DNA of 63,995 nucleotides, filler included. It is 5 parts of 5 records of this genome, joined end to end, with 100 filler letters (N's around TTAATTAATTAA, not from the genome) between each part and the next. Parts side by side here need not be neighbours in the genome. Positions count along the whole stretch, not along the records: positions 22,719 to 44,776 come from SRR31156797_11894; 4 more parts are not named here. One strand, given 5' to 3'. Both the position numbers and the translations under genes were made by a program. Below, in pieces: positions 22,719 to 59,683 of the stretch; within the stretch, counting starts at the first letter, position 1; every line of letters begins with the position of its first letter. A model generated the notes under the pieces. It was not told where the DNA came from. It saw only the letters and a list, made by a program, of their open reading frames with translations, and did no database searches.

Positions 22719-23230
22719 TCAAAAGGGGCCCCTTCAAAGGGCGTTCCCTTCAGGTTCACGCCAAAGATCCAGATCAATGACCCCAGAATCAAAACCGACA
22801 GCGTACCAAACAGCAGATTTTTGCCTCCGTGGGAGAAAGGAGTCGGATTTATCCCGCTGCAAAACCACCAGGCAGCGCAAAAGAAAAAGATAAGGCCCAT
22901 CCACAGTCCGGCAGGGAAAATGGGGATCGCAGGCCATACGTTCGTTTCCACCCACAGCAGGACCAAGGCGAGCACAATCCATAAAATACTCATGCCCCAG
23001 CCCGGAATTGCCAAAGACATTCCCGGTTTCCAGATACCCATGGGGGGTGCAAAAGGCCATCCCAGACCGACGATCCCCAGCATGGCGACGAATACCAGCA
23101 ACCAGAAAGACCAGGGCAAATAGAAGGTGATAATCCATTTCATGGGCACGAAATAGAGAAAGAGCCAAGTCAATATCAGAAATGCCACCACCTGAATGCT
23201 ACACGCTTGCCATCGCTTGATACCTTCCAT
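22719..23230 (-). CDS. Partial polytopic membrane protein (putative permease)
   Basis: At least five TM segments, Trp/Pro-rich; AGGAGG RBS before ATG 23230; truncated by the contig end. Confidence 0.65.
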
Positions 23231-23368
23231 TTTTTTGATTCCTCCTGAAAAAGATTCGATTCGTTTGGGCCGTGCGGCAAGATGTCGCCGCAAGCCACGC
23301 CTCATCCACTTACCAAAATCAAACTTCTTGTAGCCCCGTTCTTGATTGCCGTGACGACGAGTATGTCA

Positions 23369-25033
23369 CTACATCGATGTTTGCATCTGTTGTTTCAGAA
23401 TCTTCTTGTCCGCTTTTCCGGCAGCGGTGAGCGGGAAGTGGTCCAGTACATCGATCCTTGAAGGTACGAATCGTTTAGGGGTTTCCATCCGTTGTAGTCC
23501 GGATATGATATCGTCCGCGCACAAATTTTCCCCTTCAACCGGCTTGATGAAAGCGCAAATCGCCTCCCCCAGATCGGGATCCGGCATGCCGACTGCCGCC
23601 ACGTATTCAACTTTTGGCAGGGAAGATATGAGATCTTCGATGTCCCGTGCGGCGATGTTTTCTCCGCCTCTGATAATGATATCTTTTATGCGCCCGGTAA
23701 TGCGGACGTGTCCTTTTTCATCTATTACAGCTAAATCTCCGGTTCTGAAAAAACCATCTTCGGTGAATGCGTCCTTGTTCGCTTCCGGGTTATGCAGATA
23801 ACCGGAAAAGATTCCAGGTCCATTAGCCACCAGTTCTCCTTCAACTCCTGCCTCCGTCGGAGATCCCTCGGCATCCAATGTGCGGAATTCATCGTAGGGA
23901 CAGCAGCGCCTGCCGATGGTATTGGTTCGTATCTCGATGGGATCATCGATCCGGCTCTGGCATAAGGGGCCTTCCACCATGCCGAATCCGTTAATGTACA
24001 CACAATTTTTAAATCGGCTTTCAACCTGCCGGACAAGTTCGGGCGGACTGTTGGCCGCACCAACGTATATTTTCTTCACCGAACCCAAATCATAGTCGCC
24101 GATTTTGTCATGGTTGACGATCCTACTGATCAGTGTGGGCACCAATGCGGTGCAGGTGATTTTTTCCCGCTGGACCATATGGCAGAAATCTTCGGGATAG
24201 GTGGAATCGAGCATAACGATTTTTGCGCCCTGAAAAACCGGGCCGGTTATGCCGATGAGCAGTGCCAAATTGTGACCCACGGTGCTGGCAACCAGACAGG
24301 TATCGTCGGGATTCATATGCCAACTCTTCGACGTGAACTCGATGTTGCACATATAGTCGTTGTGAGTCCTCGGAGCCCCCTTGGGCAATCCCGTCGTCCC
24401 CCCGGATGGAAGTATTTGGCAGACCGCTTTCGGGTCCGGCCTGGAAATCATTAGGGTAGACTTGATGGCATCGGAACCATTTTGATCTTTCAACAGAGAC
24501 TCGAATGTTTCATACTCTGTCGGGCTTTCGCTTCGTGTGAGAAACACCTTTTCGAGTGCCGGGTTTTCAGCTTTAACCTGTTCGATAATAGGCAGATAGT
24601 CCATCTTTCTGTATTTATCCGGGACGATCCAGGCCCTGGGATCGGTCAATTTGGCCAGGTGTGAGGTTTCCCGCGCTGTATGGTTTACCGTTAATAGAAC
24701 CATGACGAGCCCCGCTTTTTGAATGGCATAATACGAGATGACGAATTCCGCCCAATTGGGAAGTTGAAGCAGCACGGTATCGCCCGGTCTCAATCCTTTC
24801 CGAAGCAATTGATAAGACATGATATCAACCATTCCTTTCAGCTCGGAATAGGTGTATCTTCTGTTACCGTCCACCAAAGCTTCTTTATCTGGGAAGACAT
24901 CCGCCGTCCGGTCAAGCGTCGCTCCAATAGTGAGATCAAGCCACCATTTCTGCTTGGCATAAAAACGAATATCTTCTTCCGAATACTGCCGTAGTCCGTC
25001 CATTTCGATCGACTTTCCTTTCACTGTAAACAA
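23369..25033 (-). CDS. AMP-binding enzyme, aryl-acid adenylating (DhbE/aryl-CoA ligase-like)
   Basis: PSGGTTGLPKG, FGMVEG, FFRTGDL, GRIKDIIIRGGENI, PLTAAGK; start may be 25003. Confidence 0.9.
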   Translation of the reverse strand: MFTVKGKSIEMDGLRQYSEEDIRFYAKQKWWLDLTIGATLDRTADVFPDKEALVDGNRRYTYSELKGMVDIMSYQLLRKGLRPGDTVLLQLPNWAEFVISYYAIQKAGLVMVLLTVNHTARETSHLAKLTDPRAWIVPDKYRKMDYLPIIEQVKAENPALEKVFLTRSESPTEYETFESLLKDQNGSDAIKSTLMISRPDPKAVCQILPSGGTTGLPKGAPRTHNDYMCNIEFTSKSWHMNPDDTCLVASTVGHNLALLIGITGPVFQGAKIVMLDSTYPEDFCHMVQREKITCTALVPTLISRIVNHDKIGDYDLGSVKKIYVGAANSPPELVRQVESRFKNCVYINGFGMVEGPLCQSRIDDPIEIRTNTIGRRCCPYDEFRTLDAEGSPTEAGVEGELVANGPGIFSGYLHNPEANKDAFTEDGFFRTGDLAVIDEKGHVRITGRIKDIIIRGGENIAARDIEDLISSLPKVEYVAAVGMPDPDLGEAICAFIKPVEGENLCADDIISGLQRMETPKRFVPSRIDVLDHFPLTAAGKADKKILKQQMQTSM

Positions 25034-25046
25034 AATTTTTCCCCGG

Positions 25047-26015
25047 TTACTGGGTTAAGGTTCGGATGTTCCGGCTCTGCAGGATGAACAGTTTTTCGTT
25101 TTGGAATGCCCATTCAACATCCTGCGGAAAATCAAAATGCTTTTCGATCTTGAGTCCGACTTTCCCCAATCTTTGCAGGTGCTCGTATTTGAGACTCGGA
25201 GTTTTGCATTTATCAGGTTCTATTTTCCTGTCGATTCTCCCGAATCCTTTTTCGTCATCAAAACAACACATTATCGTTTTGGGGGATATAACTTGCTGTT
25301 TGACTTCCAGTTCCGGTTTCCCCAACAAGAAAAAGTCGTTCATTGATTTTCCTGAAACAACGGATTCTCCAAGTCCCCAATTTGATTCGATGACTATTTC
25401 ATCTCTTTTACTCGTGATGGGGTTGGCGGTGAATAAAACACCGGCTACTTCCGAATGGACCATTTTCTGAACAACGGGTGCGATTAATCCACAGTCGTGT
25501 TCGATATTCTTGTGGAATCGGGCCATTACGGCCCTCTGGGTCCATAGTGAGGCCCAGCACTTGCGAATATGCTCAATAATTTCATCCTCGCCCTTCAGAT
25601 AATGAAAAGTGTCCATCATCCCCGGGAAGGATGAAATCGAGCTGTTCTTAACGGAAACTGAAGATCGAACCGCGACGAACGGGTCTTCGGATTGACAAAG
25701 ATCGGAAACGCTATCCGATATTTCGCTGTAAAGCTGCTCCGGAATCCGGGCCTCACGGATCAGTTTTCGAATCTGTCGGGTTTTTATTTCCAATTGCGAC
25801 AGATCCTCATAATCAAAGGTGTCGACAATGGCGTAAATATCCGGTTTCAGGCCGTTATTTTCGATCAAATAGTCCAAGGAACGGGCCGTAACACAGAATC
25901 CGTCGGGAACATCGAAGCCGGCCTGGGTCAGTTCTCCCAGGTTTGCAGCCTTGCCGCCGCATTCCTCAAAATCTCTTTTTGTCATTTCACTGAAATGTTT
26001 TATGTATTTCCTCAT
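25047..26015 (-). CDS. Stand-alone PEP-synthase/PPDK N-terminal ATP-grasp domain protein (PpsB/CreI-like subunit)
   Basis: GGKAANLGEL, VPDGF, VAVRSS, SFPG, GLGESVVSG, PQDVEWA...LFILQSR; ends there, no His-swivel or PEP-binding domain. Confidence 0.9.
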   Translation of the reverse strand: MRKYIKHFSEMTKRDFEECGGKAANLGELTQAGFDVPDGFCVTARSLDYLIENNGLKPDIYAIVDTFDYEDLSQLEIKTRQIRKLIREARIPEQLYSEISDSVSDLCQSEDPFVAVRSSVSVKNSSISSFPGMMDTFHYLKGEDEIIEHIRKCWASLWTQRAVMARFHKNIEHDCGLIAPVVQKMVHSEVAGVLFTANPITSKRDEIVIESNWGLGESVVSGKSMNDFFLLGKPELEVKQQVISPKTIMCCFDDEKGFGRIDRKIEPDKCKTPSLKYEHLQRLGKVGLKIEKHFDFPQDVEWAFQNEKLFILQSRNIRTLTQ

Positions 26016-26045
26016 GGCTCTGTCCTCTTCCGGTATTCTCTATTT

Positions 26046-26061
26046 AGCAAAATATATGCCA
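26046..26061 (-). promoter_or_regulatory. sigma54 promoter upstream of the ATP-grasp/ligase/permease genes
   Basis: Minus strand TGGCATATATTTTGCT = GG-N10-GC. Confidence 0.75.
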
Positions 26062-26291
26062 TAATAACGATTGTTCTATAAGTAGTTAAAATAATAGATT
26101 ATGTCGCCAGTTGTCCCGTTCGATCCTAAAGGAATTTTCAAGAAATGAAATTATTTTATTCAGAAATTTTAAAGGCTTAAGTTTTTAGAATGCATTTCTA
26201 GAAGATGAAACGTTTCCCAGGCCGAAAGCTAATACGACCTAGCTATTATAGGCAATTCACAAATGAGTTTTTTGGAGCATGGCCGAAGAAT

Positions 26292-27104
26292 TTAAAGTGG
26301 CGAGTCCGGGTCAAACTCCGGTTTTCTTTTCTCCATCAAAGCGGACAATCCTTCACTGACCTCGGGTCCCCTGAAACCCAGCATTTCAAGCGCCAGAGAA
26401 TTATCGAAGATCGGCCCCGCCATTCGGTACCAATTGTTCAGAGCGAGCTTGGTCCATCGAACGGCATTGGGTGCGGCGAGTGCAAGTTTTTTAGCGACTC
26501 TTATGGATTCTTCCTCCAAATCGGCGTCTTCGACGCATTTGGAGACCAGACCGATCCGTTCGGCCTCCTCGCCGTACACGGGATCGCAAGTGAGCAGATA
26601 GTATTTTGCCTTGGCCATGCCGCAAAGAAGCACCCAATTGATGCATGCGCAATCTCCGGCCGCCACCCCCAGTCTCGTATGCCCGTCGCTGATGCGGGCC
26701 GATTTGGCAATGATGGAGATGTCGGCCAGCAGTGCGGCCACCAGACCTGCCCCAACCGCCACTCCGTTTATTGCGGACACGATCGGTTTTGAACAGTTGA
26801 TCACGTTGTAAACCAGATCGCGGGCTTCCTTGTAGCCGGTGACGGTATTTTTCCAGATCTCGCTATTGTCCCGAATCATCCCGAAGTCGCCCCCGGCCGA
26901 AAAGGCCTTCCCTTTTCCGGCCAGAATTACCGCGTTGATATTGCGGTCCCGGTCAATATCTTGCCAGATATTGGCCAGATGATTGTGTCCGCTGGAGTCG
27001 ATGGAATTGTAGCTTTCCGGTTTGTTGAAGGAAATTCGCAGGACGCGCTCGAAGGGACTATCGTATTCAAAAGACGGATATTTCTCCTGATATAAACTGA
27101 TCAT
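26292..27104 (-). CDS. Enoyl-CoA hydratase/isomerase (crotonase) family
   Basis: AFSAGGD, AINGVAVGAG, DGHTRLGVAAGD, AEERIGLV-like motifs. Confidence 0.92.
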   Translation of the reverse strand: MISLYQEKYPSFEYDSPFERVLRISFNKPESYNSIDSSGHNHLANIWQDIDRDRNINAVILAGKGKAFSAGGDFGMIRDNSEIWKNTVTGYKEARDLVYNVINCSKPIVSAINGVAVGAGLVAALLADISIIAKSARISDGHTRLGVAAGDCACINWVLLCGMAKAKYYLLTCDPVYGEEAERIGLVSKCVEDADLEEESIRVAKKLALAAPNAVRWTKLALNNWYRMAGPIFDNSLALEMLGFRGPEVSEGLSALMEKRKPEFDPDSPL

Positions 27105-27151
27105 AATAAATTTCTCCTCATTTCAATAAAACATCATGCAGGCATTCATTT

Positions 27152-28339
27152 TCAGGCCTGAATGACAAAGCTCTCTCCTTCGGCAATGCCTCCGCAAATT
27201 GTCACCAAGCCGTATTTCGCGTTGCTACGAAGCATTTCATAGATGAGCGTCATGACCAGGCGACCGCCGGTTGCACCTGTTGGATGGCCGATGGCAATGG
27301 CGCCTCCATTCACGTTAGTCTTCTTTCTGATTTGTTCGATTTTTTCCGGATTGTCTCCTCCAAGAATTTTGGTGGAGACCAGGGGCATTGCGGCAAAGGC
27401 CTCGTTAATTTCGATCAAATCCATTTGATCCACGGTCATTTCGGCTTTTTCCAGGGCTTTTTGCGCCGTGTAGGCAGGTATGGAAGCGATGTGTTGAGGA
27501 TGATCCGATCCCTGGGCATGACTGATGATGGTAGCCAGGGGTTTCATGCCCAGTTCATCGGCCTTTTGTTTGGACATAAGGAGTAAAGCGCTCGCTCCGG
27601 TGCTTAATCCCGGTGCATTTCCCGCGGTTACCGTCGGACTTCCGTAAACCGTTGGAAGACTGGCCAATTTTTCCAGCGTGGTATCGGGTCTGGGGCCTTC
27701 GTCTTGTTGGACTATTGTGATTTTTCCCTTTTTGCCTATTACCTCTACCGGGAATATTTCGTCTTTGAATTTATTTTTTTGAAAGGCTTCCGCATAAAGT
27801 TTATGGCTTCTGAGCGCCCATTTGTCCTGTTCTTCCCTGCCGATGCCATGCTCTTCCGCTTCTTTTCCGGCCTGCACCGCCCTTGGTACACCGGTATACG
27901 GGCATTTAACGATAAGCAAATCCTTTAGGACGACGTCCCCCAGTCTCTTTCCCCAGCGGAGATCGCTCAAAAAATAAGGGGTTTGACTCATGTTCTCGAC
28001 ACCGCCGGCCATGATCATATCCGCTTCACCGGCTTTGATGGCGCGATAGCCCATGGCGATTGCGGCAGTGGAGGAACAGCAGGCTCTATCCAGCGTGCTG
28101 GCGTTAATGGTGTCGGGCAGCCCGGCTCTCAAAGCGACCTGTCTGGCAATGGACCGCTCCGAATCAGGCATATTTTTTCCGAGATAGACCTCATCGACAT
28201 CCCCCACATCAACCTTGGATCTCGTTATCAGTTCCTTGAAGGCCGCGGCACCAAGATCAATAATATTGAAATCCCTCAATATTCCGCCAAGCTTCCCAAA
28301 CGGTGTTCTAACGGCGTTAGTGATAACCACTTCGTTCAT
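27152..28339 (-). CDS. Thiolase (acetyl-CoA C-acyltransferase)
   Basis: RACCSS catalytic Cys, NEAFA, GGAIAIGHP, ICGG. Confidence 0.95.
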   Translation of the reverse strand: MNEVVITNAVRTPFGKLGGILRDFNIIDLGAAAFKELITRSKVDVGDVDEVYLGKNMPDSERSIARQVALRAGLPDTINASTLDRACCSSTAAIAMGYRAIKAGEADMIMAGGVENMSQTPYFLSDLRWGKRLGDVVLKDLLIVKCPYTGVPRAVQAGKEAEEHGIGREEQDKWALRSHKLYAEAFQKNKFKDEIFPVEVIGKKGKITIVQQDEGPRPDTTLEKLASLPTVYGSPTVTAGNAPGLSTGASALLLMSKQKADELGMKPLATIISHAQGSDHPQHIASIPAYTAQKALEKAEMTVDQMDLIEINEAFAAMPLVSTKILGGDNPEKIEQIRKKTNVNGGAIAIGHPTGATGGRLVMTLIYEMLRSNAKYGLVTICGGIAEGESFVIQA

Positions 28340-28363
28340 GATTGTCGTTCCTCTCTCTATGTG

Positions 28364-29581
28364 TTATACGACGTTACTTGTTTTCAACGCTTCCATGGTC
28401 GCTTCGTCGATATTTAAAATATTGCTCAACACCTCTTGAGTGTGTTCCCCCAACCTTGGGGCCGGCTGCGCCGTTCTGTCCAGCGGGACATTTTTCATTT
28501 TAATGGGATTGCCAACCAGTTTGACTTTGCCCCCCACTGGATCGTCGACCTCAATCCACATGCCCCTGGCGTCGGCTTGCGGACATTCATAAATATCCTT
28601 GGAAGTTCTGACCTTGCCGATGGGCACCCCGGCTTTCAGCAGAATGTCGCAAACTTCGTCCGAAGTATACTTGATCATCCAGGACTCGATTATCGGCGCC
28701 AATTCGGATTTGTTCTTAGTTCTTTTCATGGCATGGTCAAAACGCGGATCCTCAACAAGCCCAGGCTTTTCAATGACGTTACAGAACCTTTCCCACATTT
28801 TGGCCTCGAAAATAATCAGGGCCACATAACCGTCTTTGGTCTTAAAGGCTCCCCAAGGGTATACCAGGGCTTCCTTTCCCCTGGCCAAAACATTTTTGGT
28901 GAGAGAATAGAAGGTGTTTGCCCTCTCCGTCAGGCTTAGCATGACGTCGTACATGGCAACGTCGATATATTCTCCGAGACCTGAGATATTACGTTTGTAA
29001 AGCGCCAGACTGATAGCGTAGGCTGTTAACATGCCCGGCACAACGTCTCCAAAAGCGATCATGGGATGCAGGGGAGGGCCATTCTCTTCACCAATCAGAT
29101 TCATCAAGCCACCCATGGCCTGGATTACGATATCGTACGCCGGATTTTCAGAATATGGGCCTTTGAGGCCTTCCATTTGTCCGAAACCACTGATTGTGGC
29201 GTAGATTAAACTGGGATTAATCTTATTTAATGCTTCGTAATCCAATCCCATTTTGGCGAATGTTCCGGGCCGCAAGTTTTCAACCAAAACGTCGGCATGT
29301 TTAACAAGCGCCAGGAATATATCTCGTCCTTTTTTACTTTTTATATCCAGCGTGACGCTTTTTTTGTTCCGATTAAAACGCATGAAATAGCCGCTGAATT
29401 TGTCCCCATTTTCATTTTTTACAAAGGGACCTCCCTCTCTGGCGGGATCCCCATAACGTGATTCGATTTTAATGACTTCCGCCCCGGCATCGGCTAACAT
29501 CATAGTACAGAAAGGCGCGGCAACCTGGGTTTCCACGGCAATTACCCGTATATCGTGTAATGGCTTTTGACCATTTAACAT
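28364..29581 (-). CDS. Family III CoA-transferase (CaiB/BaiF)
   Basis: LADAGAEVIKIE, NRNKKS, ENLRPG, ISGFGQ, AYD...QA.GG, APRLGEHT. Confidence 0.95.
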   Translation of the reverse strand: MLNGQKPLHDIRVIAVETQVAAPFCTMMLADAGAEVIKIESRYGDPAREGGPFVKNENGDKFSGYFMRFNRNKKSVTLDIKSKKGRDIFLALVKHADVLVENLRPGTFAKMGLDYEALNKINPSLIYATISGFGQMEGLKGPYSENPAYDIVIQAMGGLMNLIGEENGPPLHPMIAFGDVVPGMLTAYAISLALYKRNISGLGEYIDVAMYDVMLSLTERANTFYSLTKNVLARGKEALVYPWGAFKTKDGYVALIIFEAKMWERFCNVIEKPGLVEDPRFDHAMKRTKNKSELAPIIESWMIKYTSDEVCDILLKAGVPIGKVRTSKDIYECPQADARGMWIEVDDPVGGKVKLVGNPIKMKNVPLDRTAQPAPRLGEHTQEVLSNILNIDEATMEALKTSNVV

Positions 29582-29634
29582 TCTAAATCCTCCCTCCATT
29601 GTGAAATTCGGTTTTGTTTCGAATTAAAAAATAA

Positions 29635-30027
29635 TTAGAAACGAGCCTTTATGAGTTCTATGACGTCCTTTACCTCACTGCCGGGACCAAAAACTGCATC
29701 AACACCGATTGATTTCAGGTACTTCACATCCGCTTGGGGGATAATTCCCCCTACCAGGAGCATGACATCTGTAAAGCGGTTTTCTTTTAACTGTGTTACC
29801 ACCTTTTCCATGAGCTGGTTATGGGCTCCGGACAGAATGCTCAGGCCGATCACGTCGACCCCTTCTTCCATGCCCGTTTTGACGATCGACTCAGCTGTTT
29901 GCCGTAATCCGGTATAGACGATCTCCATTCCGGAATCCCTCAGCATATAGGCGACGACCTTTGCCCCACGATCATGGCCATCCAGGCCCGGCTTTCCGAT
30001 GAGTACCCGAATTTTACGATGGGCCAT
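29635..30027 (-). CDS. Cobalamin-binding small subunit of acyl-CoA mutase
   Basis: KPGLDGHDRG (DxHxxG), GLSILSG, GGII, FGPG. Confidence 0.95.
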   Translation of the reverse strand: MAHRKIRVLIGKPGLDGHDRGAKVVAYMLRDSGMEIVYTGLRQTAESIVKTGMEEGVDVIGLSILSGAHNQLMEKVVTQLKENRFTDVMLLVGGIIPQADVKYLKSIGVDAVFGPGSEVKDVIELIKARF

Positions 30028-30040
30028 TACAATCCTCCGT

Positions 30041-31672
30041 TTACAATATACCCTGGTCCTGATATGTTCCGTATACATCTGTCAGACACGACGTGATCTC
30101 TCCCAGGGTGGCGTAGTGTTTGGCGGCTTTGACGACCGATGGAATAATGTTCTTTCCTTCCTGGGCGTCACTCCGTACCAGATCTAATGCTTTTTTAACC
30201 TTTTCCATGTCCCGATCGGCTTTCATCAACCGCAGCTTTTCGATTTGACTTTTTTCCAAATCAGGATCGACTTGGAAAACAGGGATCTCATCCTCTCCAT
30301 CTTCACGAAAGACATTAACGCCGATGATAAGACGATTTTTTTCTTCAATGGCCTTCTGGAATTGATGGGCCTCATGGGCCAACTCCTTTTGGAAGAAGCC
30401 GTTTTCAATGCATTTCTCCGCACCACCCATTTCAGTGATTTTATGAATGTAATTGTTGATTCTTTCTTCAATATTGCATGTCAACGTTTCAAGCGCGTAA
30501 CTTCCACCTAACGGATCGACGATTTTGGTTAATCCGGCTTCCTGGGCGAGTATTTGCTGGGTTCTCAAAGCCACGGTGCTGGCTTGTTCGGTAGGGAGAG
30601 AAACGGCTTCATCAAATGACGATGTGGCCAAGGTCTGAACGCCTCCCAGCACTGCCGCCATTGCTTCGACTGTCACTCGGACAATATTGTTTAGGGGCTG
30701 CTGTGCGGTAAGGGTCCCTCCGGATGTGTAAGCGATAATGCGCAATTTCATGGATTCGGGTTTTTCGGCGCCAAACCGTTCTTTCATCATCCTGGCCCAG
30801 ACCCGCCTTGCCGCCCGGAACTTGGCAATTTCTTCTATGATTTCAATATGCGATGAAAGAAAGGTGGAGAGTTTCGGTGCAAAATGGTCGATATTTAGGT
30901 TTCTCTTGAGCGACTCTTCAATGTAGCTAATACCATTGGCAAAGCAAAAGGCGATTTCTTGGGGTGCGTTTCCGCCACTTTCTCTTATATGATAACCGCT
31001 CAAGGAAATGGGAACCCAATCGGGCATATGTTTTGCTGCGTATTCGATAACGTCAACGGTAAGTTTTACGGATGCTTTTGGCGGGAAAATATAGGTGCCC
31101 CGCGCAAAATATTCTTTAAGGGGATCGTTTTGCAGAAGGATCTTTATAGCATTTGGTTCAATGTCATTTTTTTCGGTAAAAGCGATAATAAATGCTGTTA
31201 TTATCGGGGCGATGGCATTGGCAGTGGTGCGGATTTGACGGACTTTCTTAAGCGGTATTCCTTCAAATAATTTTTCAATGTCCGCCAGACTGTTAATGGT
31301 CACACCAACCTTACCCACCTCGCCGGATGAGAGTTCATGATCTGAATCGAGCCCTATCTGCGTAGGTAGGTCCAGCGCCACGGAGAAACCCGTCTGCCCC
31401 TGTTCCAGCAGATATCGGAACCTTTTGTTGGCCTCTTCAGCCGAACCGAATCCGGAGTACTGACCCATAATCCATGGATCATTCCTGTACATACCCCGGT
31501 GATTACCGCGTGTGAACGGGTATTCACCGGCTTTATTCAGATCATCACGATATACAAAGTTTATTTTCTCAAGATCCTCCGGTGTATTTTCCTCTTTAAG
31601 GAGAATTCCCGAGTTGGTAACAAACTTCTCCTGCCTTTCATTGTCCTCAAATTTTGAATCACCACTCATCAT
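30041..31672 (-). CDS. Acyl-CoA mutase large (substrate-binding) subunit, MCM family, divergent
   Basis: YPFTRG, GQYSGFG, DLPTQ.G.DSD, QNDPLKEY.ARG, SGYHIRE, DPLGGSY. Confidence 0.92.
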   Translation of the reverse strand: MMSGDSKFEDNERQEKFVTNSGILLKEENTPEDLEKINFVYRDDLNKAGEYPFTRGNHRGMYRNDPWIMGQYSGFGSAEEANKRFRYLLEQGQTGFSVALDLPTQIGLDSDHELSSGEVGKVGVTINSLADIEKLFEGIPLKKVRQIRTTANAIAPIITAFIIAFTEKNDIEPNAIKILLQNDPLKEYFARGTYIFPPKASVKLTVDVIEYAAKHMPDWVPISLSGYHIRESGGNAPQEIAFCFANGISYIEESLKRNLNIDHFAPKLSTFLSSHIEIIEEIAKFRAARRVWARMMKERFGAEKPESMKLRIIAYTSGGTLTAQQPLNNIVRVTVEAMAAVLGGVQTLATSSFDEAVSLPTEQASTVALRTQQILAQEAGLTKIVDPLGGSYALETLTCNIEERINNYIHKITEMGGAEKCIENGFFQKELAHEAHQFQKAIEEKNRLIIGVNVFREDGEDEIPVFQVDPDLEKSQIEKLRLMKADRDMEKVKKALDLVRSDAQEGKNIIPSVVKAAKHYATLGEITSCLTDVYGTYQDQGIL

Positions 31673-31779
31673 ATTACCTCTACCCTGCCTTAAATCCCCC
31701 GCTCATTAGCAGGGGATGGGTGGATTCATAAAGCACAAGTTCCCATCATTAAAAAAGATGATTTACGTTTTTCGAATTC

Positions 31780-32988
31780 TCAATCCCTGGGAGGAAAGCC
31801 TTCCACATGGGGAACGTATATATGACCTTTTCCCGCGTATGATATTTTTTCATACATAATTTGATTCTCAATAAAACAGTGATCCGGGATAGACTCGAAT
31901 TTGAAATTGCTGTCGCCGCCGCGTCCTTTTCCCCACACGGGGCAACTCACCGGCAGGAAATGTCTTTGCGTGTCGATGCAGTTGCAGCAATAGATGCATT
32001 TTGCAATCTCTTTTTCCCGTCCTTCCATTGCCTTGATCGGCCAATCCGGGTCTGCAATCAAGGGACGACAAACCCCGACGATATCGACGCGGCCCTCTTC
32101 AAGGACTTTTTCAGCAATTTCGGGGGTGGGGATGCGACCGACACCCTGGACAGGAATTGTCACCGCTTTTTTAACGGCTTCCATGACATGAAGGTTGCAG
32201 CATTCGGCGTATGACCGGGGTGGAATGCAACGTTGCCCGCTGTACCCCGTATACCAATGACCGTCTTCATATCTGCCGCCAACAGAGACATCCATGTAGA
32301 ATACACCCGCATCTTCCAGCAGCTTGGCGGTTTCGCAAGCAAGCTGGGTGGTTACTCCGCCGGACACAAAATCATCACCGTTAATGCGACAATTCACCAA
32401 AGCCGATGTTCCGCACTCCTCTTTGATCAAAGCGATGCAATCCAGTAATACCTTGGCGCGTTTTTTTACGCTCCCCCCGTATTCATCCGTTCTGCGATTG
32501 GCTGTGGGGGATAACATGGAAGCAAAGGTATAGGCATGAGCGGCATGCAGCTGTACAAAATCAACGCCGCAGTCAAAGCAGCGTTTGGCAGCGGAAACGT
32601 ACTGCTCGTTCATTTCCGCGAATTCCTTCGGCTTCATATCGGTCGGTTCCATTCGATAATTGTGGGAAACGCTGGGCCAATGAACCAGTTGAACCCCGCA
32701 TTTGGCTCCATATTTGTGAATGACGTCCACAATACGTTTAAGCCCCTCTTTGTAACTATCGTCCACCATTCGCATGAGATTGCCGCTCGGACGCTTATGG
32801 ACGCCCACCGCCTCGACAACCACCATGCCCACGCCGCCCGCGGCGATTTGCTCATACCACTTGACATGCTTTTCAGATACATACCCGCCTTCCAAACCGA
32901 ATTGCGTGGAAGCCGGCGGCATGACCAACCGGTTTTTCAATTTCAAAGGCCCCAGATCATATTCACTAAACAGCTTTGGGTAGTTCAT
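31780..32988 (-). CDS. NADH:flavin oxidoreductase (Old Yellow Enzyme family) with C-terminal Cys cluster
   Basis: LKNRLVMPP, HAAHAY, NRRTDEYGGS, RPLIADPDW, CIYCCNC...C. Confidence 0.9.
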   Translation of the reverse strand: MNYPKLFSEYDLGPLKLKNRLVMPPASTQFGLEGGYVSEKHVKWYEQIAAGGVGMVVVEAVGVHKRPSGNLMRMVDDSYKEGLKRIVDVIHKYGAKCGVQLVHWPSVSHNYRMEPTDMKPKEFAEMNEQYVSAAKRCFDCGVDFVQLHAAHAYTFASMLSPTANRRTDEYGGSVKKRAKVLLDCIALIKEECGTSALVNCRINGDDFVSGGVTTQLACETAKLLEDAGVFYMDVSVGGRYEDGHWYTGYSGQRCIPPRSYAECCNLHVMEAVKKAVTIPVQGVGRIPTPEIAEKVLEEGRVDIVGVCRPLIADPDWPIKAMEGREKEIAKCIYCCNCIDTQRHFLPVSCPVWGKGRGGDSNFKFESIPDHCFIENQIMYEKISYAGKGHIYVPHVEGFPPRD

Positions 32989-33061
32989 TTTCTATCTCCA
33001 ATCTTCGCGTTGCTGCTTCATAAAAATTGAAATTTTAGGATGCTAACTTGTGGTTTCATTG

Positions 33062-33077
33062 AGCATGAATCGTGCCA
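33062..33077 (-). promoter_or_regulatory. sigma54 promoter of the OYE-mutase operon
   Basis: Minus strand TGGCACGATTCATGCT = GG-N10-GC. Confidence 0.75.
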
Positions 33078-33462
33078 ATGAACATTAAACAAAATTTACC
33101 AAGTAATTACGGATATATAGATAGCCAGGAAAGAAATTTTCCAATTCGGTGCAACTATTGATTTTTAATTTATTTGATGTGTCTTCTAACTTTTTGAAAA
33201 ATGGCTATGCATTTGACTTCCAAATTCAACCACAGGTGTTCTATAGCGTAGGAGAACCGTCTTCAGAAGAGATGGGAAACATCGTCTGGTAGGATTTCAG
33301 CTTAAGATGACAACATCTATCTCTGAGCCGATTTGAGAGTTTGGGAATCACATTACCCCATTGTTTTCATAGTTTAAATATGAACATCCGGATTATCTTT
33401 GAGTTGATTATGGGAATTTACGCGAACAATATTTTCCTGATTATCAAATATAGGATCATTTC

Positions 33463-33478
33463 TGGCATGCTTATTGCC
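33463..33478 (+). promoter_or_regulatory. sigma54 promoter of the HD gene
   Basis: TGGCATGCTTATTGCC = GG-N10-GC. Confidence 0.75.
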
Positions 33479-33591
33479 GAATACATTTCATGTCCCTTGA
33501 TAATCAGAGGTTAGAAGCAGTATGGTTATACAAATGAGAGTGCACCACAATGAATGAAACAATTATTTAGGTCATAGGAAAAGAGGATAAT

Positions 33592-34218
33592 ATGGTGGAT
33601 CAAAACGAAAAGCCCTTGGATGTTGACTGGCAAATAGAGGACTCGGATCACGCGATCCTCTACAAAAGAGCCGAACCGTTCCTGCAAACACGTTTTAATG
33701 CACTTCATACTCGAATTGCCTATTTTTTTGCCTTGATGCTTCTGAAAAAAAAAGATGGCAACCCGGAAGTGGTCATTCCGGCAATTTTATTACATGATAT
33801 TGGTTGGAGCGTTATCTCGGAAGGCCGTCAAGTTGGGGCATTCGGGCCGGAAATCAGAAAACCTGAACTCAATCGACTCCATGAAATTGAAGGTGCAAGA
33901 ATGGCGAGAAATATTCTTGCGGATTTGGGATGTCCTGAAGACCGTATTGGGGAAATTCAAAATATTATCTCCGGACACGACTCACGTCATAATCCAATAA
34001 ATGTTAATGATGCTATTGTCAAAGATGCCGATAAACTTTGGAGATTTACCCATGAAGGATTTACCATCGATTACCAACGCTTTGGAAAAACAAAAAACGA
34101 ACATTACATATGGCTCTTTGAAAGCATACCCAAATGGTTTTTGATCCAGGGATCTACCACTCTGGCTAAAGACATGTTGCTGCAGCGAAAAAAAGAGTAT
34201 GGCATTGAACATGAGTAG
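33592..34218 (+). CDS. HD-domain phosphohydrolase (CreD-like)
   Basis: H...LLHDIGW...HE..GA...GHD...DADKLWRF. Confidence 0.85.
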   Translation: MVDQNEKPLDVDWQIEDSDHAILYKRAEPFLQTRFNALHTRIAYFFALMLLKKKDGNPEVVIPAILLHDIGWSVISEGRQVGAFGPEIRKPELNRLHEIEGARMARNILADLGCPEDRIGEIQNIISGHDSRHNPINVNDAIVKDADKLWRFTHEGFTIDYQRFGKTKNEHYIWLFESIPKWFLIQGSTTLAKDMLLQRKKEYGIEHE

Positions 34219-34416
34219 ATAAGTGCCGAAACGGCAGCCCTTTCAAGGTGGCCCATAGCTAACAGTCCCCACGTACTGGCAATGGGAATACGGGCCTACT
34301 TATTTTTTAAATTTTTAAAGAATATTCATAAAATTTTGAGAACCCTTCCATAAGTCTCTTGGAGTCCCCATTCCATAACATTCTGAAAAATAAACAAAAA
34401 ATTCTATAACAATTTT

Positions 34417-34432
34417 TGGCATATTTATTGAA
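34417..34432 (+). promoter_or_regulatory. Near-consensus sigma54 promoter upstream of the PPDK-like gene
   Basis: TGGCATATTTATTGAA (GG-N10-GA, one mismatch at -12). Confidence 0.45.
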
Positions 34433-34650
34433 CAAGGGTATCGCAGCTCGTGGTGAGTGTGGCCCATTTTATGGTTTGTCCCAGCCAAAGCACACCGCCG
34501 GGCTCACTTTATATCGACCACTATGGAAAAATTTTAACGGGTGAATGAAACATGCGATGATACCGTTATATCTTGGAAGAGCAGTAATGGAGGAGATGGT
34601 CGAAAACGATAAGAGAGGTAATACCAATAACGCTTTAGACAGAGGTCAAA

Positions 34651-36996
34651 ATGGGAACTATGCATACATCTACTGAAAAGACAATTTGTGACGCCGTTCA
34701 TGCAGCCCAACACGACCAGCGGTCGGATTTGGTATCGGCAGCGGTTAATTCGATTCACCCCGACGCGCTGGATGTGTTCTTTCACGCTGGATTGGAGACC
34801 ACTGCCATAACATCCAAACCGGCCACCACCGGGCTACCTGCTTCACCTGGCGCCGCCGTGGGTGAGGTCGCTTTGGACGCAGCCCAGGCGCTGGCTATGG
34901 CTGAGGCGGGGCGGTCAGTAATTCTGGTGCGATCCGAAACAACCCCAGACGACGTGTTGGGCATGCAGGCCGCCCAAGGGATTCTAACGGCGCGAGGCGG
35001 GTTAGGGTCTCACGCCGCCATTGTTGCCCGCGGCTGGGGAAAGCCCGCGGTGGTGGGGGCCGTCGACGTGCACGTCGTTGCCGGCGGCATAGAAATCGAT
35101 GGTATCTCAGTGAGCGAAGGCGACCCTTTGACCATTGACGGCAGCACCGGTGCTGTCTACATAGGCGAGCTCGAGGTGTCATCACATGAGCCTCCAACCG
35201 AGCTGAACCAACTGCTTCACTGGGCCGACCAAGTTGCGGAGACCGGCAGGGTTCAGGTGCGGGCCAACGCGGACACCCAAGACGATGCGAGTATGGGCCG
35301 CACGTTGGGAGCAAAAGGTATCGGGCTGTGCCGAACTGAGCACATGTTCCTGTCTCCCGATCGACTCCCGATGATGCGCCGCTTCATACTGAGCGAGACG
35401 GTTGCCGAGGAACAAGAGAGTTTACAACAACTTGAAAAAGCCCAGGTTGCTGATTTCGAGTCGGTGCTGGAGGCCATGGACGGGCTGCCGGTAACGGTTC
35501 GCCTGCTCGACCCGCCACTGCATGAGTTTCTGCCCGACTTAGTGGACCTCACCGCCAAAGAGGCCCGAGGCGAGTTGAATAGCGTCGAGGCAAAGGAGCT
35601 GTCGGCGGCGCGGCGGCTACACGAAACTAACCCCATGATCGGCACCCGAGGGGTGCGGATGGGTATGGTGCGTAGCGGTTTGTACGAAATGCAGGTTCGT
35701 GCGTTGTCGGTTGCGGCCGGCAACCTGATTCAGCGGGGAAAGCAACCGCGGATAGAGATCATGATTCCCCTGGTCGTTAATGAACGTGAACTATCCATGG
35801 CCAGACAATGGGTAACCGATACGTTGGACCAGTCGGGCCACCCGGAGTTGGCGGCCGAAGCCATTTCGATCGGGGCGATGATCGAAACACCCCGCGCCGC
35901 CTTGGTGGCCGGTGCGCTATCAGAGCACTCCGACTTCTTCTCCTTCGGCACTAACGATCTAACCCAAATGACATTCGCCTTTAGCCGCGACGACGTTGAA
36001 GCTCGCACGCTTCCCGCCTATCAGGAGAGGGGGATTCTCGAAGAGAACCCGTTCGCGGTGTTAGATCATGACGGGGTTGGCGCCCTGGTAGAAATGGGCT
36101 GCAAGGCCGCCCGCCAGACCAAGCCATCGATCAAACTTGGGGTATGCGGTGAACACGCGGGTCACCCAGACTCGGTGGACTTCTTTGTTCGGGCCGGAGT
36201 GGACTCGGTGAGCTGCTCACCGTTTCGAGTTCCGCTGAGTCGCCTGGCGGTGGCTCAGGCTTTGCTGGCCTCAGGCCGCGTGTCGGCTGAAGCAGTGCCG
36301 TTTACCTTCAACAGCTCTGGAACCTCATCGGCTGATGTTGATGGCAGCTCCTCATCCTCTGAACAGCCCGGAGGACAACCCGTAGACGAGACCGCGCTGG
36401 CGGTGGACGAAGATCTCGTGCTGTATGTTCTGCGGGTTCGAGGCTTCATCACCCCCGAAGGCCTGCTGGAGAGCTTGGGTACGGTTCCCACCGACATGAT
36501 GGCCGACTTTGTGAGCCAGGGCTGGGTGAACCATATGGAAGATAGCGACATGTATTCACTTACTCCCGAAGGGAAAAAAGAACAGCAGCGTCGCTTCGAC
36601 TCGGCCGCCGACCCGGCTCTGGCCCAGGCGTTATCGCCCGGCTACCGGCTTTTTTTGAAGCTCAACACCGAGTTTAAGGAACTGTGCAACCGCTGGCAGT
36701 TGAAAGACGGCGCTGTCAATGATCACTGTGACATCGCCTATGATCAACTGCAGCTTGATGGTCTCGCGTCGCTCGCTGATAGGGCCCAACCCGTTCTCGT
36801 GCAGCTGGCGGAGGTCCTCCCCCGCCTGGCGCGTTACAATAGCCGCCTGCAGGAGGCTTTTCTGCGGGCGGTTGGCGGTGAAACCAAGATGTTTACCGGC
36901 GTGATGTGTGGCTCATTTCACGATATATGGATGGAGCTGCACGAAGACCTCATGCTGCTACAAGGCATCAATAGAGCTGAAGAAGGCAGCTTCTAG
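34651..36996 (+). CDS. PPDK-like PEP-utilising protein lacking the ATP-grasp domain, fused to an Rv1126c-like C-terminal domain
   Basis: GLPASPGAA.G, GGLGSHAA (His121), GIGLCRTEHMF, RLLDPPLHEFLP, ENPM-like NPMIG.RG.R, MIETPRA, SFGTNDLTQ, GVCGEH; Ser-rich linker; extra ~195-aa domain ending SFHDIWMELHEDL. Confidence 0.85.
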   Translation: MGTMHTSTEKTICDAVHAAQHDQRSDLVSAAVNSIHPDALDVFFHAGLETTAITSKPATTGLPASPGAAVGEVALDAAQALAMAEAGRSVILVRSETTPDDVLGMQAAQGILTARGGLGSHAAIVARGWGKPAVVGAVDVHVVAGGIEIDGISVSEGDPLTIDGSTGAVYIGELEVSSHEPPTELNQLLHWADQVAETGRVQVRANADTQDDASMGRTLGAKGIGLCRTEHMFLSPDRLPMMRRFILSETVAEEQESLQQLEKAQVADFESVLEAMDGLPVTVRLLDPPLHEFLPDLVDLTAKEARGELNSVEAKELSAARRLHETNPMIGTRGVRMGMVRSGLYEMQVRALSVAAGNLIQRGKQPRIEIMIPLVVNERELSMARQWVTDTLDQSGHPELAAEAISIGAMIETPRAALVAGALSEHSDFFSFGTNDLTQMTFAFSRDDVEARTLPAYQERGILEENPFAVLDHDGVGALVEMGCKAARQTKPSIKLGVCGEHAGHPDSVDFFVRAGVDSVSCSPFRVPLSRLAVAQALLASGRVSAEAVPFTFNSSGTSSADVDGSSSSSEQPGGQPVDETALAVDEDLVLYVLRVRGFITPEGLLESLGTVPTDMMADFVSQGWVNHMEDSDMYSLTPEGKKEQQRRFDSAADPALAQALSPGYRLFLKLNTEFKELCNRWQLKDGAVNDHCDIAYDQLQLDGLASLADRAQPVLVQLAEVLPRLARYNSRLQEAFLRAVGGETKMFTGVMCGSFHDIWMELHEDLMLLQGINRAEEGSF

Positions 36997-37104
36997 ACAT
37001 GGCTGACTTGGCCCGGTATCGGCGGCGAGCCGACGGGGGCCTAACTGAACTGAATGAATAGTCAATATTCCGCACGGGAACTACCATTGCTAAAGGAGTA
37101 AAGA

Positions 37105-39057: not shown

Positions 39058-39739
39058 TGTCCGTCCAGGAAAGGATAACAGTCTGAATTTAAAGAAAATA
39101 TCGCATTTTGAGGTAGATAAAATTCCCTATTTTTTGCTTCTGTCAAAGAACGAATACTATGCCCGTGGCGTTTGCGTACACCACATCTGTGCATGAGCGT
39201 GCCGATTTGAAATCGGTTGAAAAAGTCATTGATTTTGCTTTGTACGTGAAAGTTGACTTGTGCCTGACCAACAATTTTGCTATGTTACATTTAAGCCCTT
39301 TCTCTTTGAATATATTTGAAACTTGGTAAATTCCATTTGAATTCAAAAGATTGGGCTATACAACATATTTATTAGTTAAAACAGAATATTATGCGATAAT
39401 TTTTGCTCTAAAAGTTGAACCCCGAAAGTTGAGTTAATAATTCTTCGCATAGCCTTATCTCATAGAGAGGTGTGGGCTTCGATAGTCTGTGGCAGAAGGC
39501 GTATAGCAATTCCGGGAAGTTGAAGTGCTGGAAAAGGGCGGAGAGAACATGATCACGACTATTGAAGTTGAAAGTATTGTTATCATCGTTACGTTTAAGG
39601 AGAGACCCACAGAGCTGTAAAAACCATGAAATTCGGTGTGTTATGGTTAAAGGAGTGCACCTTTTGGTGGGTGGTGGTAAATATCGCTATGAAAATTTCT
39701 GGAAACATCAGAGATTTAATAAAAAAATAGGAGCTTCTT

Positions 39740-41244: not shown

Positions 41245-41532
41245 ATGCATATCATCACTCGAAGGCGCTTACTTGAATTTGCCAAAAACCATCCGGATTG
41301 TTCCAATGCAATGGAATCCTGGTATCGTATTGTGAAACACACTGATTTCAATTCTTTTCATGAACTCAGGCAAACTTTCCCGAGTGCTGATAAGGTCGGC
41401 AACTTAACCGTCTTCAACGTCGGGGGCAACAAAGTCCGTCTGATTGCAGCTATACACTATAATCGTCATAAGGTTTACATCCGGCATGTTTTGACGCATG
41501 GGGAATATGATCGAGGATACTGGAGGGAATAG
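41245..41532 (+). CDS. higB: Type II toxin HigB (RelE superfamily)
   Basis: MHII..., FPSAD.VG..TVFNVGGNK.RLI..I.Y....YIR.VLTH.EYD. Confidence 0.92.
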   Translation: MHIITRRRLLEFAKNHPDCSNAMESWYRIVKHTDFNSFHELRQTFPSADKVGNLTVFNVGGNKVRLIAAIHYNRHKVYIRHVLTHGEYDRGYWRE

Positions 41533-41933
41533 TGGGAATCCAACTTAAAGAAATTGCGGAGATATGGCCCGTTATCCAGCCCATACTTTCGGTGCCGCAC
41601 AGTGAATCAGACTATAACAAGCTGATCGTTTTCCTTGATAGCCTTATTGATGAAGTGGGCGATAATGAGAAACATCCACTGGCATCTCTGATGGAAACCG
41701 TTGGGAAACTGGTTGAAACGTATGAAACCCGATATGTTCCCGAGATATCGAGTAATCCGATAGATACATTGAAATCTCTGTTGATGGAGCACGAACTGAA
41801 ACAATCGGATTTGGCTGAAATCGGCAGTCAAGGTGTTGTATCTGAAATTTTGTCAGGTAAACGTCAGTTGAATCTCCGTCAAATCAAAAGGTTGAGCAAA
41901 CGTTTCAAGGTGTCTCCTGCAGTTTTTTTATAG
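41532..41933 (+). CDS. higA: Type II antitoxin HigA (HTH)
   Basis: LKQSDL.EIGSQGVVSEILSGKRQLN; start overlaps the toxin stop (TAGTG). Confidence 0.92.
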   Translation: MGIQLKEIAEIWPVIQPILSVPHSESDYNKLIVFLDSLIDEVGDNEKHPLASLMETVGKLVETYETRYVPEISSNPIDTLKSLLMEHELKQSDLAEIGSQGVVSEILSGKRQLNLRQIKRLSKRFKVSPAVFL

Positions 41934-54068: not shown

Positions 54069-54140
54069 TTTGCAACTCCAAAATATGTACTTTAATTGAG
54101 AAAGTTTCGTTTTGAATAACAAGCTATTATTTAGCTTCTG

Positions 54141-58884: not shown

Positions 58885-58885
58885 T

Positions 58886-58985: not shown

Positions 58986-58986
58986 T

Positions 58987-59127: not shown

Positions 59128-59131
59128 AACT

Positions 59132-59543: not shown

Positions 59544-59561
59544 TTGTTTATATTTTTCACA

Positions 59562-59662: not shown

Positions 59663-59683
59663 TACCGTATTGATAATAAGGAT

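Follow-up and report, generated by a model that had tools for sequence, protein, structure and literature searches.

We found that the island at positions 22719..34218 is built as a mosaic of two modules, each conserved on its own, and that its main novelty is a predicted remodelling of the CoA channel of a B12-dependent mutase, which the first-pass annotation of this DNA did not contain. As judged by residue comparison, this mutase represents a separate clade in which a dicarboxylate-type acyl end is conserved: the putative carboxylate-binding residues Y89, R207, and H244 are kept, and five basic CoA-channel positions appear lost or relaxed. Features are listed in Table 1; the window is the whole stretch of DNA that was analysed, 63,995 nucleotides.

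Table 1. Genes and putative promoters of the island and the neighbouring PPDK gene.
Feature	Position	Strand	Basis
Sigma54-type -24/-12 site before HD gene	33463..33478	+	1 mismatch
Sigma54-type site before unit A	33062..33077	-	1 mismatch
Sigma54-type site before unit B	26046..26061	-	no mismatch
HD-domain phosphohydrolase, divergent; candidate aryl-phosphate phosphatase	33592..34218	+	Pfam HD, E 2.5e-10
Old-yellow-enzyme barrel (OYE)	31780..32988	-	Pfam/NCBIfam, Oxidored_FMN
AdoCbl mutase large subunit, undescribed subfamily	30041..31672	-	MM_CoA_mutase; residue comparison
B12-binding small subunit with DxHxxG	29635..30027	-	Pfam/NCBIfam B12-binding
Family III (CaiB) CoA-transferase, catalytic Asp motif present	28364..29599	-	CoA_transf_3
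Thiolase, C87/H352/C382 intact	27152..28339	-	Pfam/NCBIfam thiolase
EchA15-type crotonase (PRK07327), candidate C-C hydrolase	26292..27104	-	ECH_1
Stand-alone ATP-grasp, PpsB/CreI/HpeI-like kinase beta subunit	25047..26015	-	PPDK_N only
DhbE-like aryl-acid ligase	23369..25003	-	AMP-binding; best model DHB_AMP_lig, below cut-off
Membrane protein of ~360 aa, 5' half, cut at contig edge	22719..23230	-	35% homologue in G698
ATP-grasp-less PPDK, probably outside the island	34651..36996	+	His domain, barrel, ~240-aa tail; GC 0.59

The contig spans 22719 to 44776 with N-spacers on either side, so that the cluster is indeed cut at its left edge. The ten ORFs described earlier for 22719..34218 were reproduced in position and orientation, and Pfam/NCBIfam agreed with nine of the gene labels; the tenth, a "permease" fragment, had no Pfam/NCBIfam match and no usable Atlas match. 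The supposed single co-oriented run kept its orientation but falls into two transcription units, separated by a 276-nt gap with its own sigma54 site. Unit A (module A) comprises the OYE, the split B12 mutase, the CaiB transferase, the thiolase, and the EchA15-type crotonase; unit B (module B) comprises the ATP-grasp protein, the ligase, and the permease. Sigma54-type promoters ahead of the units were likewise recovered as three sites with 0–1 mismatch, each intergenic and immediately upstream of a unit; across the window, 11 -24/-12 matches were counted vs. 5.0 expected by chance. Likely start codons are at 30027 (mutB) and 25003 (ligase). A public contig of 29,738 nt contains 22719-40500 unbroken and continues beyond the left edge for 7,680 nt; it is perhaps the source of the same DNA and is thus not independent support. 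The PPDK gene lies just beyond the range covered by the earlier annotation and was absent from it.

The mutase shares split subunits, the DxHxxG motif, and the fold with the methylmalonyl-CoA mutase family (MCM, ICM, HCM, ECM, IaaGH), and Y89/Q197/R207/H244/E370 with MCM. It is 42% identical to HCM 4R3U and about 51% identical to housekeeping MCM-type genes of relatives, and it forms a clade of its own (support 99/95). Y89, T166, Q197, R207, and H244 are kept in all 176 members of the subfamily set. Compared with 69 control mutases, basic residues are depleted at R82 (16% vs. 100%), R283 (32% vs. 99%), K321 (3% vs. 96%), and R326 (78% vs. 100%), and the R87 position is Gly in 120/120 similarity-selected homologues. 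R87, which is R108 in the human enzyme, binds CoA at its ADP-ribosyl moiety (PMC4349194). The S285 position is occupied by F/W/Y in 170/176 members, position 328 by F/L/I/M/V, and position 366 by S; overall, R82, T85, R87, R283, S285, K321, R326, H328, H364, N366, and Q330 are changed or relaxed. We take R82, T85, R283, S285, and R326 to be channel residues and H328, Q330, and N366 to be pocket residues. A basic R82 and R326 are retained in fourteen further mutase genes found at loci of related genomes. The signature of isobutyryl-/2-hydroxyisobutyryl-CoA mutase (F or I at 89, Q at 207) is absent, with Y and R in 176/176, as is what we assume to be the ethylmalonyl-CoA mutase signature (G at 328, P at 366). 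Two arginines, R145 and R148 (=S164R), are new and invariant in the subfamily; against CoA-independent action, they could re-anchor CoA. The AlphaFold model (mean pLDDT 63.5; <50 at 44–75 and 316–390) is poor exactly in those predicted barrel strands that the residue changes concern.

Module A recurs widely, across several phyla. We compared 78 mutase loci, 33 of them long (8 kb or more). The thiolase occurs at 40/78 loci (26/33 long ones), CaiB at 25/33 long loci, and CaiB orthologues (42–61%) adjoin the mutase in 35/78; the smallest recurring core is transferase, mutase, and thiolase. EchA15-type crotonase orthologues were found at 16 loci and aryl-type ligases at 21, and the order DhbE-like ligase, OYE, mutase, CaiB, thiolase was seen in four. 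Clustering of all 78 loci gave acyl-CoA dehydrogenase at just 4, so the substrate seems to be at the keto level already. Biotin-carboxylase subunits or carboxyl-transferase adjoin the module in 6–8 loci, and a PrpR-type activator is present at L104. As a counterpoint, further genes that recur beside the module (AtuA, aminotransferase, 2-oxoacid dehydrogenases, HpcH aldolase, KdgT, TctC) point to other acids. The OYE has a C-terminal CxxCxxC..C motif (likely 4Fe-4S), lacks FAD/NAD domains, and shares only 35–40% identity with module B OYEs and with those at four module A loci. Module A was not found among 209 genomes of the host's order and therefore probably came from outside.

The thiolase keeps its Cys-His-Cys catalytic residues as well as R62, R85, and R153 in 120/120 homologues listed. 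In all 120, Arg stands at the positions of PcaF R65 and M163/M157, which neighbour each other beside the active site, R65 lining the acyl tunnel (PMC7337054). PcaF, a beta-ketoadipyl-CoA thiolase, has the first of these arginines, and the second distinguishes the thiolase studied here; two pocket arginines suggest an anionic acyl group. The known methylmalonyl-CoA mutase family members have no counterpart of such a dedicated Arg-Arg thiolase, which is itself missing from 7/33 long mutase loci. Three of these seven (L056, L066, L096) have an ordinary thiolase without both arginines, yet the mutase R164 is present. The crotonase has His/Asp in place of two Glu, a pair also found in 6-oxocamphor hydrolase (a weak match, E 3e-4), where we take it to be the catalytic dyad. 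The crotonase is 50% or more identical to EchA15 and is a candidate for ring hydrolysis.

Module B is a different conserved unit. The ATP-grasp protein (322 aa, PPDK_N only) has at least 120 near-length homologues at 59–71%, and its orthologues (59–65%) in 15 Desulfobacterota genomes all lie within module B, which occurs in 11/209 genomes of the host's order. Beside these orthologues are an amidohydrolase of a decarboxylase family (15/15 stretches), a HAD phosphatase (14/15), and, downstream, a PpsA/CreH-like partner (9/15 stretches fetched). The earlier assignment to the PpsB/CreI type thereby gains support, and we regard the protein as a probable kinase subunit of this type. Split PEP-synthase-like phenol kinase systems combine a phosphatase, a CoA ligase, and a step that cleaves a C-C bond (PMC9618137). 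PpsAB, CreHI-CreD, and HpeHI-HpeD-HpeE likewise have a stand-alone ATP-grasp beta subunit, and their alpha subunit is matched in the clusters orthologous to unit B. However, the kinase belongs to a separate subfamily (41–43% to PpsB-like genes of UbiD-type clusters), the orthologous clusters carry an ACMSD/LigW-family amidohydrolase instead of a UbiD or biotin carboxylase, and no link of those pathways to a B12 mutase was found. The ligase is 56–65% identical to module B ligases, with near-identical pocket motifs; as no carrier protein is near, it is presumably CoA-forming. A 357-aa homologue of the membrane protein (35%) directly follows the PpsA-like gene in G698. HD homologues lie at ~7 kb distance from the kinase (44%, G924) and adjoin other PpsAB-like pairs (36%, G652); the HD protein had no PDB match. 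In unit B this module is present as a reduced copy: no PpsA-like alpha subunit was found within the readable contig 22719-44776, no amidohydrolase within the window, and HAD, OYE, SDR, and ACAD are missing between kinase and ligase. We propose functional stand-ins for these four among HD and unit A.

As our best guess, held at less than even chances, module A would dispose of a 4-oxo-dicarboxylic acid resistant to beta-oxidation, with 4-oxopimelate as the model substrate. The mutase would hold the terminal -CO-CH2-CH2-COO- as it would succinyl, and a keto-acyl shift would give 2-methyl-3-oxoadipate. The substrate may be the free acid, its two carboxylates held by R207 and the new R164, or a thioester with CoA pushed outward. 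With CoA attached at the beta-keto end by CaiB, the product would be cut by the Arg-Arg thiolase to succinyl-CoA and propionyl-CoA. To our knowledge, few carbon-skeleton reactions of B12 acyl-CoA mutases are known, every one on CoA esters, and we know of no description of keto-acyl migration for this family. The levulinate (lva) pathway and similar phospho-isomerisations of 4-hydroxyacyl-CoA meet the same proposed problem, a C4 oxygen that blocks beta-oxidation, with an APH-type kinase and a dehydrogenase and without B12.

An ordinary acyl-CoA mutase with thioester migration and shifted CoA, acting on substituted succinyl- or malonyl-CoA, is somewhat unlikely; in a variant, the thiolase acts first on a branched 3-oxo-dicarboxylyl-CoA and the mutase second. 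Invariant Y89/R207 are dicarboxylyl-CoA determinants, the two new arginines could stand in for lost CoA contacts, CaiB and carboxyl-transferases are common neighbours, and every characterised family member that we know of acts on CoA esters. Against it are the net loss of 4–5 basic positions, the bulky residues at 285/328, a core without dehydrogenase or decarboxylase, and an acyl pocket that has not been opened, unlike those of the IaaH-like group (F287N, Q330G) and another paralogue group (F287S, Q330G, N366A). The first-pass annotation had likened the cluster to the iaa route via arylsuccinyl/benzylmalonyl-CoA; we rejected this identity as highly improbable. The iaa operon (Aromatoleum aromaticum; Desulfatiglans-like genomes) also has a mutase, a family III CoA-transferase, a ligase, and a thiolase in a gene cluster for anaerobic catabolism, and Y89/R207 are common to both. 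However, in iaa-type clusters of related genomes, a reference picked by gene content and not by authentic IaaH sequence, the first three are not orthologous to the genes described here: the IaaH-like mutases (41%) form another clade with another signature and retain the CoA residues, the IaaL-type CaiB is only 28% identical, and the ligase is of the PaaK-type IaaB family. These clusters also carry hydantoinase (IaaCE), Mo-hydroxylase (IaaIJK), and ACAD/ETF (IaaF/ETF), none of which was found within 22719-44776. The iaa figure legend names no kinase among its genes (PMC8360864).

It is very unlikely that the ATP-grasp protein supplies the N-terminal part which the neighbouring PPDK lacks, the two forming a split pyruvate/PEP enzyme and no aromatic kinase. 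That PPDK keeps the phospho-His and Cys motifs, lacks exactly the ATP-grasp domain, and adjoins PEPCK; however, GC differs (0.59 vs. 0.46), the 770–790-aa form is a natural family in its own right, and the ATP-grasp orthologues consistently occur in module B, nine with a PpsA-like partner. Units A and B may well, at somewhat less than even chances, be unrelated cassettes with their own substrates, unit B feeding a benzoyl-CoA pathway as in relatives; this is compatible with either mutase mechanism. The expected co-occurrence across genomes was found for each module but never for both (0/78 mutase loci, 0/15 kinase stretches), so the evidence that the earlier annotation had named as refuting is half borne out; neither the ATP-grasp nor the HD gene occurs at any of the mutase loci, nor do module A genes near the kinase orthologues. 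The closest mutase and thiolase homologues both lie on 30,847-nt contigs, and none of the best 120 ATP-grasp matches is on such a contig. The promoters are separate, and genes of the benzoyl-CoA ring-cleavage type (labels from sequence starts only) directly adjoin module B in G982 and G855. On the other side stand the co-orientation, the short gap, the same promoter type, the genes missing from unit B, and the frequent aryl ligases at module A loci (21/78).

Returning to the 4-oxo acid reading, it is more speculative that unit B feeds unit A in the host genome. A hydroquinone-type dihydroxy-aromatic would undergo phosphorylation and carboxylation by subunits that are predicted to lie past the contig edge, then dephosphorylation by HD and ligation to a gentisyl-type CoA ester; the OYE would reduce this to a cyclic 2,5-dioxo-CoA ester, which the His/Asp crotonase would open to 4-oxopimel(yl-CoA). 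A point against this scheme is that reducing a para-dihydroxy ring is energetically uphill. Rather unlikely in our estimation, though worth stating, is the full proposal that this widespread clade gave up canonical CoA binding for a B12-dependent 1,2-shift of a ketone acyl on free 4-oxo-dicarboxylic acids and forms, with the phenol-kinase module, an anaerobic hydroquinone/gentisate-type ring cleavage bypassing benzoyl-CoA. In line with the earlier annotation, which knew of no such pathway, no described pathway with this exact gene combination was found in the literature searched.

The 176-member clade, with its apparently rebuilt CoA channel and intact carboxylate end, is a candidate for a new reaction. 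Cultured hosts exist, since Ca. Formimonas warabiya, Neobacillus novalis, Desulfotomaculum copahuensis, and Natranaerofaba carboxydovora are among its named sources. Module B is an undescribed kinase/amidohydrolase/ligase set and a candidate for anaerobic phenol carboxylations that lack assigned genes. If the proposal is true, the mutase, its dedicated CoA-transferase, and the Arg-Arg thiolase would constitute an undescribed route for 4-oxo acids; were the mutase to rearrange such acids, this would account for the way anaerobes cope with a group that stops beta-oxidation, and the enzyme would be of use as a biocatalyst on levulinate-type feedstocks.

The island sits on one of the five contigs that, with N-spacers, make up the window, and ORF and family searches of the window recovered the ten open reading frames and family labels of the first-pass annotation. 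The gaps between the genes for OYE, mutA (mutase large subunit), mutB (B12 subunit), CaiB, thiolase and crotonase were 107, 13, 35, 24 and 47 nt. After the crotonase gene there is a gap of 276 nt, and then come the ATP-grasp gene, the ligase gene and the cut membrane gene. Since this gap carries its own perfect sigma54-type site, the island is made up of a pair of co-oriented units, A and B, plus a divergent HD gene rather than of one run. One -24/-12 site was present before each of the three, as had been proposed from the first reading. Scans for sigma70 promoters and terminators gave matches at no more than chance level. One public contig, 29,738 nt long and possibly assembled from the same reads, carries the island unbroken and reaches 7,680 nt beyond the edge at 22719.

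Coordinates of the features discussed (window positions, or positions on the fetched locus where an L number is given)
Feature	Positions	Strand	Content
Contig with the island	22719-44776		
Unit A	32988 down to 26292	-	OYE, mutA, mutB, CaiB, thiolase, crotonase
Unit B	26015 down to 22719	-	ATP-grasp, DhbE-like ligase, cut membrane gene
HD gene	33592-34218	+	
Part carried by the public contig	22719-40500		
PPDK without ATP-grasp	34651-36996	+	His domain, PEP barrel, ~240-aa tail
HigA-like antitoxin/HTH gene	41532-41933	+	small gene, candidate by sequence start
Low-GC contigs	53827-58885 and 58986-63995		
Sister mutase locus	L011:131-11599		
Sister mutase locus	L227:3944-12884		
Locus of further mutase group	L231:1673-15964		
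Putative CRISPR array (G698)	L185:300-4300		repetitive translations typical of such arrays

The mutase belongs to a subfamily with a rebuilt CoA site. We compared 176 subfamily sequences (120 similarity matches, 55 motif loci and the window mutase) with 69 R87-bearing control mutases, with residue numbers of P. shermanii MCM taken from the 1REQ alignment. Y89, T166, Q197, R207, H244 and E370 were invariant in 176/176, and F287 was kept in 172. Basic residues at positions 82, 283, 321 and 326 occurred in 16%, 32%, 3% and 78% of the subfamily vs. 100%, 99%, 96% and 100% of the controls, respectively. V/I was found at T85 in 169 sequences, F/W/Y at S285 in 170 and F/L at H328 in 172. Apart from R87, the roles of these positions in the CoA channel or pocket are presumed here. 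The subfamily has Gly at R87 and two new near-invariant arginines, an inserted one (window residue 145) and S164R (window residue 148); since positions 87 and 164 served to define the sets, the counts there are circular, except that both changes are present in all 120 similarity-selected matches. According to the accessible part of PMC4349194, R87 binds CoA at its ADP-ribosyl part.

A tree was built from 57 rows, of which 24 were drawn from the 176. In it, the subfamily formed one side of a 99/95 branch and joined L011, L214, L008 and L038 (mutase loci all without R87, three on long branches) at 100/99. There may be a wider CoA-site-degenerate mutase clade beyond the subfamily. The predicted structure confirms the fold only, the AlphaFold model being too weak in the channel. 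A structural study of mutase specificity from 2015 reportedly lists uncharacterised mutase groups, and this clade may be among them.

Other diverged mutases were encountered. The sister mutases of L011, L227, L008 and L038 are without R87 and conserved R82/R283 and have other pocket residues; that of L011 is linked to hydantoinase A/B and an aldehyde oxidoreductase, and that of L227 to OYE, a ligase, an SCP2-type thiolase and a PrpD-family gene. A further undescribed group (L231, L232 in genome G958 and L236 in G980) keeps the CoA residues and carries F287S, H328F/Y, Q330G and N366A. It is accompanied by a DhbE-like ligase (40%), Amidohydro_2, a carboxyl-transferase-like gene and a thiolase with 44-46% identity to the window thiolase and without R62/R153. 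Mutases of L234, L238, L239 and L241 are strongly diverged (H244 to T or N, Q197H, or Y89Q/R207P). G958 and G980 have seven mutase paralogues each.

Resemblance to the indoleacetate (iaa) route, suggested earlier, was not borne out. The iaa genes have been described, and in sulfate reducers a dedicated ETF goes with them (PMC8360864, in the part available). Genomes G924 and G855 have such iaa-type content (ETF, ACAD, mutase, TRAP, PaaK-type ligase, Mo-hydroxylase and hydantoinase A/B, with CaiB in G855). However, their mutase has 41% identity to the window mutase, falls in a different clade and keeps the CoA residues with an opened pocket (F287N, Q330G, N366C), and their CaiB is 28% identical to that of the window.

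A motif from the best 120 mutase homologues (55-78% identity) was used to scan metagenomes. Of 94 stretches, 80 had flanks and 78 were analysed; L085 and L091 (labelled human gut) and 14 flank-less loci were excluded from all counts. Orthologous thiolase was found in 40 of the 78 loci, CaiB in 35 and the small subunit in 18; an AMP-ligase of any kind was present in 21 loci, the EchA15-type crotonase in 16 and a close OYE in 4. Among loci of at least 8 kb, thiolase was present in 26/33 and CaiB in 25/33. The neighbouring ligases were of the benzoate-CoA or DhbE type. Other recurrent neighbours were carboxyl-transferases (8 loci), MaoC (8), cupin (8), TctC (7), HpcH aldolase (6), KdgT (4), AtuA, aminotransferases and 2-oxoacid dehydrogenases. 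Conservation of this gene set, module A, thus does not include the kinase.

The ProA protein, encoded on another contig of the window, was closest to that of G538 (76%) among 151 Desulfobacterota genomes. One ATP-grasp orthologue bears the name Ca. Desulfacyla euxinica, which suggests a Desulfatiglans-like host. In 209 genomes of the order of G538, neither this mutase type (at 1e-195, which would overlook subfamily members under about 55%) nor this thiolase type (1e-125) was found, and the best named thiolase among the 120 homologues listed was from Peptococcaceae BRH_c4b (72%); module A was therefore likely acquired from outside the host lineage. Scans for the mutase motif in sets of 5, 21, 4 and 341 genomes, none with a positive control, were negative. 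Plasmids yielded no subfamily member, all 427 records being under 60% (best listed, 49.5%), and a scan of genome contigs picked up 54 loci, the majority of them generic mutases (37-54%).

Unit B has relatives of its own. Orthologues of its ATP-grasp (59-65%) occurred in 4/401 genomes of the phylum and 11/209 of the order, and none was found at 1e-90 in 401 genomes of one class. Stretches of 6-48 kb from these 15 genomes contained the ligase orthologue (15), Amidohydro_2 (15), HAD (14), a 205-aa unknown protein (14), OYE (13), SDR (12), ACAD (11), a PpsA-like alpha subunit (9), the membrane gene (1) and HD (1). No alpha subunit was seen in the other six stretches, which were short contigs or ended early. 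The amidohydrolase was nearest to ACMSD/LigW decarboxylases, and the pocket motifs of the ligases are common to the window ligase. All scores of the membrane protein against the Atlas were under 0.9. The PpsAB, CreHI and HpeHI kinases, described with a phosphatase and a CoA ligase in the accessible text of PMC9618137, have the same architecture as this module B; a PpsA-like alpha subunit is thus predicted beyond the contig edge. The initial PpsB/CreI-type reading of the ATP-grasp agrees with the architecture of the orthologous clusters, although the protein falls in a subfamily of its own, with 41% identity to a PpsB-like gene that lies beside UbiD-type genes.

Three PpsA/PpsB-like pairs lie on one 97-kb contig (G652:C4, L181-L184; G704:C6, L187), accompanied by phytoene-dehydrogenase-like flavoproteins, an HGD-D dehydratase set, a xanthine-dehydrogenase-type Mo enzyme and homologues of the HD and membrane proteins. 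Near the island, the PPDK gene has a GC content of 0.59 within a 0.48 contig, is followed by PEPCK and looks actinobacterial. Four full-length homologues of 770-790 aa show this ATP-grasp-less PPDK to be a natural form; its misassembly is unsupported, a single public contig (possibly from the same reads) spanning the gene. The last two contigs (GC 0.32-0.40 vs. 0.48-0.50 in the first three) probably come from a different organism that ended up in the same bin.

The catalytic residues C87, H352 and C382 are intact in the thiolase and, like R62, R85 and R153, were present in 120/120 homologues listed. In an alignment read by eye, R62 and R153 match R65 and M163 of PcaF (Q64 and M157 of Z. ramigera thiolase). 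These two positions are 3.75 A apart and R65 lines the acyl tunnel (PMC7337054, part of the text). Two arginines at the acyl pocket suggest an anionic acyl group; three long loci in which the same mutase type is paired with a thiolase without R62/R153 count against it. The crotonase is an EchA15 relative in which His and Asp replace the hydratase glutamates. This pair presumably resembles that of 6-oxocamphor hydrolase, itself a weak match, hence our guess of a candidate C-C hydrolase.

Because the core comprises a transferase, a mutase and a thiolase but no dehydrogenase, its substrate should already be a keto acid, yet one that resists thiolysis, which points to a 4-oxo acid. Its -CO-CH2-CH2-COO- end would mimic succinyl and the ketone acyl group would migrate, which fits the unchanged carboxylate end and the rebuilt channel. 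The mutase could convert 4-oxopimelate to 2-methyl-3-oxoadipate, whose CoA ester would be cleaved to succinyl-CoA and propionyl-CoA, the former of which could be recycled through CaiB. Intramolecular activity is known among family III transferases (PMC11659651, in the portion available), which makes a CoA-bound variant just as plausible. We hold this core chemistry, rearrangement of a 4-oxo acid followed by thiolysis, only tentatively, and strict CoA independence of the mutase is unlikely. Given the doubly basic pocket of the thiolase, levulinyl-CoA ranks lower as a substrate; o-succinylbenzoate and 2-oxoglutarate are possible. On paper, the kinase, HD protein, ortho-hydroxy-aryl ligase, OYE and ring hydrolase could turn a hydroquinone/gentisate-type ring into 4-oxopimelyl-CoA upstream of the 4-oxo acid rearrangement, and a functional link between units A and B could equally well hold or fail.

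A search of mostly openly accessible literature found neither the gene set nor the subfamily described, nor any levulinyl- or oxopimelyl-type mutase, in keeping with the first-pass view that no described pathway has this combination. A single conserved island was not supported: the ATP-grasp, HD and membrane genes were each found in 0/78 mutase loci, and module A genes in 0/15 module B stretches (6-48 kb). The gene set is real and undescribed, but it is not one conserved island, and its value lies in the mutase-thiolase module.
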